Virus record (IMG/VR): IMGVR_UViG_3300045988_152564
Origin: a virus
Taxonomy: Duplodnaviria; Heunggongvirae; Uroviricota; Caudoviricetes
DNA length: 55,949 nt
Strand: one strand, 5' to 3'
Shown here in pieces: positions 46,174-46,227 of this stretch; position 1 is the stretch's first letter; each line of letters starts with the position of its first letter. The notes beneath the pieces are model-generated. The model did not search any database. It saw nothing but the letters and a program-made list of their open reading frames with translations, and was not told where the DNA came from. The translations under genes and the position numbers were made by a program.

Positions 46174-46197
46174 GAACAAATGACTACTCGTAGAATC
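46174..46197 (+). promoter_or_regulatory. putative late promoter (gaacaaaTGACTactcgTAGAATc)
   Basis: Third copy of the motif; followed by inverted repeat 46187-46197 / 46211-46221 in the leader. Confidence 0.45.
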
Positions 46198-46227
46198 GGT
46201 TAACACACCAGATTCTACGAGGTTTCA

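Follow-up and report, generated by a model that had tools for sequence, protein, structure and literature searches.

An inverted repeat at the late promoter LPsit of a P1-like phage-plasmid and its possible role as a translational gate on read-through RNA

The stretch of viral DNA analyzed here (IMG/VR record IMGVR_UViG_3300045988_152564, Caudoviricetes; 55,949 nucleotides, in the following the window) is, as judged from its sequence, DNA of a P1-like phage-plasmid (Punavirus). It carries several copies of a promoter-like motif, and the copy at 46174 is followed by an 11-bp inverted repeat. It is nearly certain that three of the copies represent the phage P1 late promoters LP26, LP23 and LPsit and that a fourth copy represents LPs. 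The repeat at LPsit is interpreted more tentatively as an element that silences the translation of pmgC, the first gene of the tail operon, on transcripts reading through from variable accessory genes. The account as a whole, i.e., promoter identity and hairpin gate taken together, is put forward with high confidence. The motif itself is not new: it is the published P1 late promoter class and is already annotated at exactly these positions. What is modestly new is that the LPsit repeat is read as a gate acting on read-through RNA, with a late-promoter-like site in gene 7 as another minor addition.

In P1, the late genes, which serve lysis, structure and packaging, require Lpa (PMC8198154), a sequence-specific DNA-binding activator working via RNA-polymerase-bound SspA (PMC1891329), and there are 11 P1 late promoters each containing a conserved 9-bp inverted repeat, which is the Lpa-binding site (PMC10695390). 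The P1 annotation up to coordinate 91,600 likewise lists 11 late promoters (LPmat, LPpro, LPlyz, LPdar, LPs, LPsit, LP23, LP26, LPpmgL, LPhot and LPpac), all of which share the same architecture of a box AAGTGACTT (variants include AAATGACTA, AAGTTACTT and ATGTGACTT), a spacer and a -10 element. The spacer is 4 bp long (9 bp in LPhot) and free in sequence, and the -10 element is usually TANNNT. In 8 of the 11 promoters 'AC' stands just upstream of the box, which is the source of the prefix 'CAAC' in the motif as an earlier note on this DNA had described it. Mechanistically, these elements are promoters of the sigma-70 type with a TANNNT -10 element and no -35 element, in whose place stands a 9-bp imperfect inverted repeat near -22. 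In P1, Lpa (gp10), made early under C1 control, binds to this -22 box and, together with the host protein SspA on the RNA polymerase, activates transcription of the operons for morphogenesis, packaging and lysis. For the promoters of the window, a dependence on Lpa and SspA would be expected by analogy with the P1 literature, in which no usable start-site or transcript-mapping data for P1 were found by our search.

Searching the window with the 23-nt pattern CAACAARTGACT-N5-TARAAT resulted in matches without mismatch at 12727-12749 and 33404-33426 and in a match with one mismatch at 46174-46196. Allowing up to three mismatches, five matches were obtained compared to 0.24 expected, and five were reached in none of 100 shuffled sequences. 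All three sites reported in the earlier note were recovered with the starts given there and with the same spacing between TGACT and the hexamer in each; the third copy begins with GAACAA instead of CAACAA, and the ends had been placed one base too far. The three are real, and the count of three is incomplete, as LPs, LPpmgL, which shares the box at 12731-12739, and a site at 14432-14454 are present in addition. Between the end of the -10 element and the start codon lie 29 nt for LP26, 51 nt for LP23 and 31 nt for LPsit. The assignment of the motif to an activator-dependent late promoter class ahead of structural operons proved to be right, the sites being positional orthologues of LP26, LP23 and LPsit of P1.

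The identification as P1 late promoters, made by sequence comparison, is supported by a position weight matrix (PWM) built from the annotated P1 late promoters. The four plus-strand late promoters of the window score 24.6-27.8 bits, whereas the maximum in a null set of 30 simulated windows is 16.8 bits. No evidence against the identification was encountered in the data gathered. LP26 (12727-12749, plus strand) consists of the -22 box AAATGACTA at 12731-12739, the spacer gcgg and the -10 element TAGAAT at 12744-12749; it precedes the operon 26-25-7-24-6-5 (baseplate and tail), the feature 'late promoter LP26' of the P1 record AF234172 maps to it, and it scores 27.6 bits. Divergently to it lies LPpmgL (12721-12739, minus strand), which uses the LP26 box on the other strand (TAGTCATTT) and the -10 element AATATT at 12726-12721. 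The shared box is given as such in the P1 annotation, and the matrix match of LPpmgL is weak (11.0 bits; -11.1 bits in a leave-one-out matrix). LP23 (33404-33426, plus strand) has the box AAGTGACTT at 33408-33416, which is a perfect 9-bp palindrome, the spacer tcaa and the -10 element TAAAAT at 33421-33426, and it precedes the operon 23-22-21-pmgG-bplB (capsid, sheath and baseplate). The 'predicted late promoter LP23' of AF234172 maps to this position, which directly follows parS and precedes the major capsid gene (27.8 bits), and the P1 record annotates an overlapping 'predicted sigma 70 promoter P1 23' nearby.

LPsit (46174-46196, plus strand) is composed of the box AAATGACTA at 46178-46186, the spacer ctcg and the -10 element TAGAAT at 46191-46196, and its operon is pmgC-tub-pmgB-sit-pmgA-bplA-16 (tail tube, tape measure/transglycosylase and baseplate). 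Positions 46178-46196 align base for base with the 'late promoter LPsit' of AF234172, including its 9-bp '-22 region' and -10 element, directly upstream of pmgC. LPsit is also annotated in phage P7, scores 24.6 bits, and a sigma-70 scan of 45900-46400, done for LPsit only, returned no -35 partner for the -10 element at 46191. LPs, formerly Ps (54731-54753, plus strand), serves the tail-fibre operon R-S-U and contains the box AAGTTACTT at 54735-54743, the spacer atct and the -10 element TACAAT at 54748-54753. It is annotated in P1 as 'late promoter LPs' and scores 27.7 bits, on par with the other copies. The statement of the earlier note that the start of the tail-fibre operon at 54784 lacks the motif is therefore incorrect, as AAGTTACTT-atct-TACAAT is found at 54735-54753, 30 nt before the ATG. 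It had been overlooked because the central base of its box is a T, which a rigid 'TGACT' excludes. In total, four known -22 boxes in the window serve five annotated late promoters. The names are not used uniformly: a preprint (bioRxiv 10.1101/2022.07.24.501295) calls the R-S-U tail-fibre promoter 'LPSit', whereas GenBank gives LPs for it and places LPsit upstream of pmgC.

The inverted repeat at LPsit (46187-46221, plus strand) is a perfect 11-bp repeat, with arms at 46187-46197 and 46211-46221 and a 13-nt loop, and it includes the -10 hexamer as had been described. In the left arm CTCGTAGAATC, the -10 hexamer (46191-46196) is preceded by three of the four spacer bases and followed by one further base. 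The right arm GATTCTACGAG overlaps the Shine-Dalgarno (SD) sequence of pmgC, whose initiation region (46219-46230, plus strand) is made up of the SD sequence GAGG at 46219-46222 and the ATG at 46228-46230 according to the annotation of the P1 pmgC coding sequence (CDS). The RNA polymerase of E. coli starts transcription 6-8 nt past the -10 element, which predicts a start of LPsit at about 46202-46204, i.e., inside the hairpin loop. Since the left arm contains the -10 element and ends one base past it, transcripts started at LPsit lack this arm. The left arm lies upstream of any LPsit start and the late leader consequently forms no hairpin, so that the suggestion that the repeat might affect leader stability of the late mRNA is ruled out by the geometry.

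Folded as RNA, the hairpin has a predicted energy of -19.7 kcal/mol (z = -5.4), and none of 200 shuffled sequences was as stable. RNA starting at 46203 has no comparable predicted structure. Opening the region from -18 to +4 around the pmgC start would cost 17.5 kcal/mol on the read-through RNA compared to 5.3 kcal/mol on RNA starting at +7, and this difference of about 12.3 kcal/mol ranks first among 57 starts of open reading frames (ORFs) in the window (mean 2.1, standard deviation 3.1). Ranks two and three are taken by 44111-44530 (minus strand; 11.4 kcal/mol) and by the start at 37695 (plus strand; 10.3 kcal/mol). The former falls by position in the c4/icd/ant immunity region, for which the P1 annotation gives control of translation by antisense RNA. 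Rfam contained nothing on the hairpin and gave only sub-threshold matches on the region of the simC terminator.

These features suggest how the repeat might act. A transcript reading through from upstream would hold both arms and would form a hairpin of about -20 kcal/mol burying the SD sequence of pmgC, whereas an RNA started at LPsit would begin in the loop, would lack the 5' arm and would leave the ribosome-binding site open. Translation of pmgC would then require firing of the late promoter, and Rho-dependent polarity on the untranslated RNA might silence downstream genes as well. This function is read from the anatomy, the modeled energetics and the conservation of the hairpin, and, although still short of probable, it is regarded as the likeliest of the readings considered. 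The literature search, which did not reach the P1 genome paper, found no description of such a gate in P1.

When the same -10/SD hairpin was sought at all 11 P1 late promoters, LPsit was the sole outlier, with an accessibility difference of 12.2 kcal/mol. The accessibility differences elsewhere (5.9 kcal/mol for LP26, 4.6 for LPdar, 3.7 for LPhot, 3.6 for LPpac and 3.3 for LP23) lie within or near the background, and the hairpin as a general property of late promoters was rejected as only LPsit stands out. A weaker second case of the gate is possible at LPdar. The LPdar leader (AF234172 31183-31230, minus strand, outside the window) contains a 7-bp anti-SD/SD stem, CCUCCUG/UAGGAGG, spanning the predicted start before the holin gene lydA, and the 5' arm of this stem is largely lost in a transcript from +7. 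Furthermore, the LPdar box is preceded, at a distance of 6 nt, by another box-like sequence, CAACAAATGACCG.

The region upstream of LPsit could supply the RNA on which such a gate would act. The slot at 45205-46173 and its equivalents in relatives form a recombination hot-spot carrying unrelated cargo, which is co-oriented with pmgC in every variant examined. The window and P1 contain simABC in this slot, P7 contains genes for a DUF5384 protein and a TraT-like lipoprotein, and JK004 (a Cronobacter phage) and many contigs contain an ORF of about 160-170 amino acids, without Pfam match in JK004. The conserved sequence begins at the ACA running into the -22 box. The upstream ORF sometimes stops as little as 6 nt before the box without an intervening terminator (6-30 nt in many P1-like contigs and in JK004). 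In the window, an intrinsic terminator follows simC (46050-46073, plus strand; 9-bp stem with five G-C pairs and a T-rich tail), and it limits read-through into LPsit, albeit probably only in part. The accessory genes of the slot are presumably expressed from the prophage in the typical case.

The repeat is strongly conserved. In all 86 P1-type loci from collections of phages, genomes and viral contigs, both arms are intact and at the same spacing, while variation is seen at 5 of the 13 loop positions and at box position 8, and the DNA directly before the box is mosaic with several unrelated contexts. Our survey contained only two lineages with 60-95% PmgC identity. In JK004 (PmgC 74% identical) and a Salmonella plasmid, the loop is replaced by eight different nucleotides and the bases between the stem and the ATG differ. 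The stem deviates from P1 in a single pair, which is changed on both sides (TAGAAT/ATTCTA to TAAAAT/ATTTTA, i.e., G:C to A:U), and two added G:C pairs extend it to 13 bp. This covariation goes back to a single evolutionary event, seen in two sequences that are close relatives, and is suggestive rather than strong. Moreover, the LPsit spacer CTCG is kept, though spacers are free in the other late promoters, and it pairs with CGAG of the SD region. In the D6, Serratia, Pantoea and Erwinia relatives, bplB abuts pmgC, and neither promoter nor hairpin is found there.

Several points weigh against a gate at LPsit. Only the ribosome-binding site of pmgC is occluded, and tub and the later genes have sites of their own. 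The start of LPsit is inferred from the standard distance between -10 element and start site. With the simC terminator preceding LPsit in the window, little read-through may remain to be silenced. In the covariation test, 10 of the 13 pairs are invariant and most measures are barely above the shuffled controls, and separate constraints on the -10 element and on the SD sequence could explain part of the conservation. Finally, the hairpin at LPdar, taken alone, does not reach significance (z = -1.4).

According to one alternative, the repeat has no function of its own and reflects a chance complementarity of two separately constrained elements, the spacer with the -10 element on the one hand and the ribosome-binding region on the other. 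Both arms do overlap signals that are conserved anyway, the P1-type sequences are all very close relatives, and several other leaders show short and probably fortuitous complementarities to the -10 element. However, only about 0.4 perfect 11-bp repeats with short loops would be expected in the 56-kb window according to our estimate, and most of the 17 repeats found in it are recognizable operators, terminators or parS. Moreover, nine arm positions without other known constraint, six in GATTCT of the right arm and three in CTC of the spacer, show no variation, in contrast to the adjacent loop and flanks, and the sole substitution in the stem is compensated, an outcome of about 1 in 33 given one change per arm. 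A repeat arising by chance is therefore considered unlikely.

The symmetric change of both arms in JK004 would also be expected of an operator co-evolving with its protein. The repeat might instead be an element acting on the DNA level, either as the operator of a dimeric regulator over the -10 element or as a cruciform-prone sequence modulating initiation at LPsit, which is the idea of the earlier note. Its perfect 11-bp symmetry and its overlap with the -10 element and the start site, the classic position of a repressor, agree with this. On the other hand, the arm spacing is not kept, as the loop has 13 nt in P1-type and 8 nt in JK004-type sequences, which places the arm centres about 24 and 21 bp apart, respectively, and is awkward for a fixed dimer. 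Furthermore, the half-site CTCGTAGAATC has no other copy in the window or in P1 1-91,600, which implies that there is no regulon; the repeat has no resemblance to the annotated C1 operators of P1, which are asymmetric and 17 bp long; and one variant lengthens the stem by a G-U pair, which is sensible only in RNA. A role on the DNA level thus appears quite improbable.

Given similarly little weight is the possibility that the hairpin constitutes the 3' end of the accessory-gene transcripts, as a weak terminator or as a stabilizer against exonucleases, and that the occlusion of the SD sequence is incidental. The stem is stable, and the lack of a terminator between the upstream ORF and the box in many P1-like contigs and in JK004 would fit such a role. 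However, no U-tract follows the stem (GUUUCAAUG in P1 and GUUGGCAUG in JK004), and a terminator scan calls only the simC terminator and not the repeat. In the window and in P1 this canonical terminator is located about 110 bp upstream, yet the hairpin is unchanged. The exact overlap of the arms with the -10 element and the SD sequence would also be left unexplained.

A second, leftward late promoter formed by the right arm (TAGAAT on the minus strand at 46217-46212, mirroring LP26/LPpmgL) is very unlikely and was rejected: P1 has one divergent pair with a shared box, and the minus strand also reads CTCG-TAGAAT and contains the loosely box-like CAATGACAC at 46226-46234, but the matrix scan finds no minus-strand site of at least 8 bits near 46200-46240, the box-like sequence is separated from the hexamer by 8 nt instead of 4 nt and coincides with the region of the pmgC start codon, and there is no gene to serve before the simC terminator.

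With these alternatives weighed, the LPsit repeat is quite possibly a conserved translational gate, or insulator, placed between a hypervariable slot expressed in lysogens and the late tail operon. If true, this would explain how accessory genes can be exchanged upstream of a structural operon without leaky expression of tail genes in lysogens, and it would extend a translational-gating design known from phage T4 to a temperate phage-plasmid. The practical value of the analysis lies in annotating a P1-like phage-plasmid correctly; resistance genes are carried by this group to an increasing extent.

Next to the annotated promoters, the window contains a late-promoter-like site inside gene 7 (14432-14454, plus strand; CDS 14387-15115), which reads CAAC-AAGTGACTG-gtga-TAACCT. 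Compared to the search pattern, this sequence (CAACAAGTGACTG-gtga-TAACCT) has two mismatches. It scores 21.1 bits, above the null maximum, and contains a 12-nt exact match with LP23. No promoter is annotated at this site in the P1 record. JK004 retains the core CACAAATGACCG-gtga-TACGCT, and the neighboring codons have diverged. By its sequence, the site may serve the 26-25-7-24-6-5 operon as an internal late promoter or as an additional Lpa site, which suggests that late promoters beyond the 11 of the canonical list may exist. Two weak matches to the pattern, at 26686-26708 (plus strand, 10.4 bits) and 27820-27842 (plus strand, 12.3 bits), fall inside the null range and are not claimed as late promoters for this reason. 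The match at 26686-26708 lies 33 nt upstream of the start of upfC, a spacing typical of true late promoters.

The window is closely related to P1. Its identity to P1 and to phage vB_EcoM-813R1 is 96-99.9%. The 4-kb region around LPsit is 97.6-99.5% identical with P1, vB_EcoM-813R1 and vB_EcoM-673R5, and the DNA around the other two motif copies at 12727 and 33404 is 99.5-99.9% identical to the same phages. Mapping of P1 segments onto the window showed that it represents the reverse complement of P1 from about 86.2 kb to 37.1 kb and that it also carries a few segments without a P1 counterpart. The gene lpa (P1 89,991-90,443) is located beyond the end of the window, which corresponds to a P1 coordinate of about 86.2 kb. 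The nearest full genomes, vB_EcoM-813R1 and vB_EcoM-673R5, encode Lpa with 98.7-100% identity, and homologues in JK004 and D6 are 67% and 31% identical, respectively.

Among the segments absent from P1, 38839-41217 lies in the region that contains rlfA/rlfB/pmgF in P1. It contains an ORF of 391 amino acids (39904-41079, minus strand) with HTH_OrfB_IS605, OrfB_IS605 and Cas12f1-like TNB domains, which is an IS605-family TnpB and apparently represents an insertion element. A further segment of about 5 kb (1052-6051, ORFs on the minus strand) has one insertion point on the P1 map, at about 85,182 and close to the overlap of pmgT and pmgU. Among its ORFs are those for two Ead/Ea22-like proteins, a DUF551 protein and a DUF7739 protein, several others have no Pfam match, and the segment looks like accessory cargo of the lambdoid type.

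Compared with the late promoters of P1, both the element and its genomic positions are the same in the window, i.e., the 9-bp repeat at -22, the 4-bp spacer, the TANNNT -10 element and the missing -35 element. LPsit is identical in sequence, and LP26, LP23 and LPs match their P1 counterparts in box, spacing and -10 element. Nothing material differs in the promoters; the differences are the mosaic segments elsewhere and the location of lpa outside the window. Similar designs are known from the late promoters of P2, 186 and P4, which depend on Ogr/B/Delta, and from the C-dependent late promoters of Mu. These have a weak or absent -35 element and a symmetric activator site upstream of the -10 element, which recurs ahead of each late operon as in P1. 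Their activator sites are longer and are located further upstream, and these systems are not known to use SspA for co-activation, whereas the P1 box has only 9 bp, lies next to the -10 element and is centred near -22.

For the repeat at LPsit, the closest comparison is with T4, in which the late promoters of gene e (lysozyme) and of I-TevI are located in the 5' arm of a hairpin that sequesters the ribosome-binding site on early and middle read-through RNA (PMC3014915). As in these cases, the -10 element of LPsit lies in the DNA of the 5' arm, the predicted start in the loop and the SD sequence in the 3' arm. In T4 the long transcripts are closed and the promoter-proximal ones open, and the same is predicted for LPsit. 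The systems differ in the transcription machinery, which uses gp55/gp33 in T4 and would use sigma-70 with Lpa/SspA at LPsit, and in the gated genes, which function in lysis and as a homing endonuclease in T4, whereas at LPsit the gene is a morphogenetic gene of the tail operon. They also differ in the source of the upstream RNA, which stems from early lytic genes in T4 and would be supplied by accessory genes expressed in the lysogen at LPsit. The likeness between LPsit and the T4 genes would be an analogy of mechanism and not a homology.

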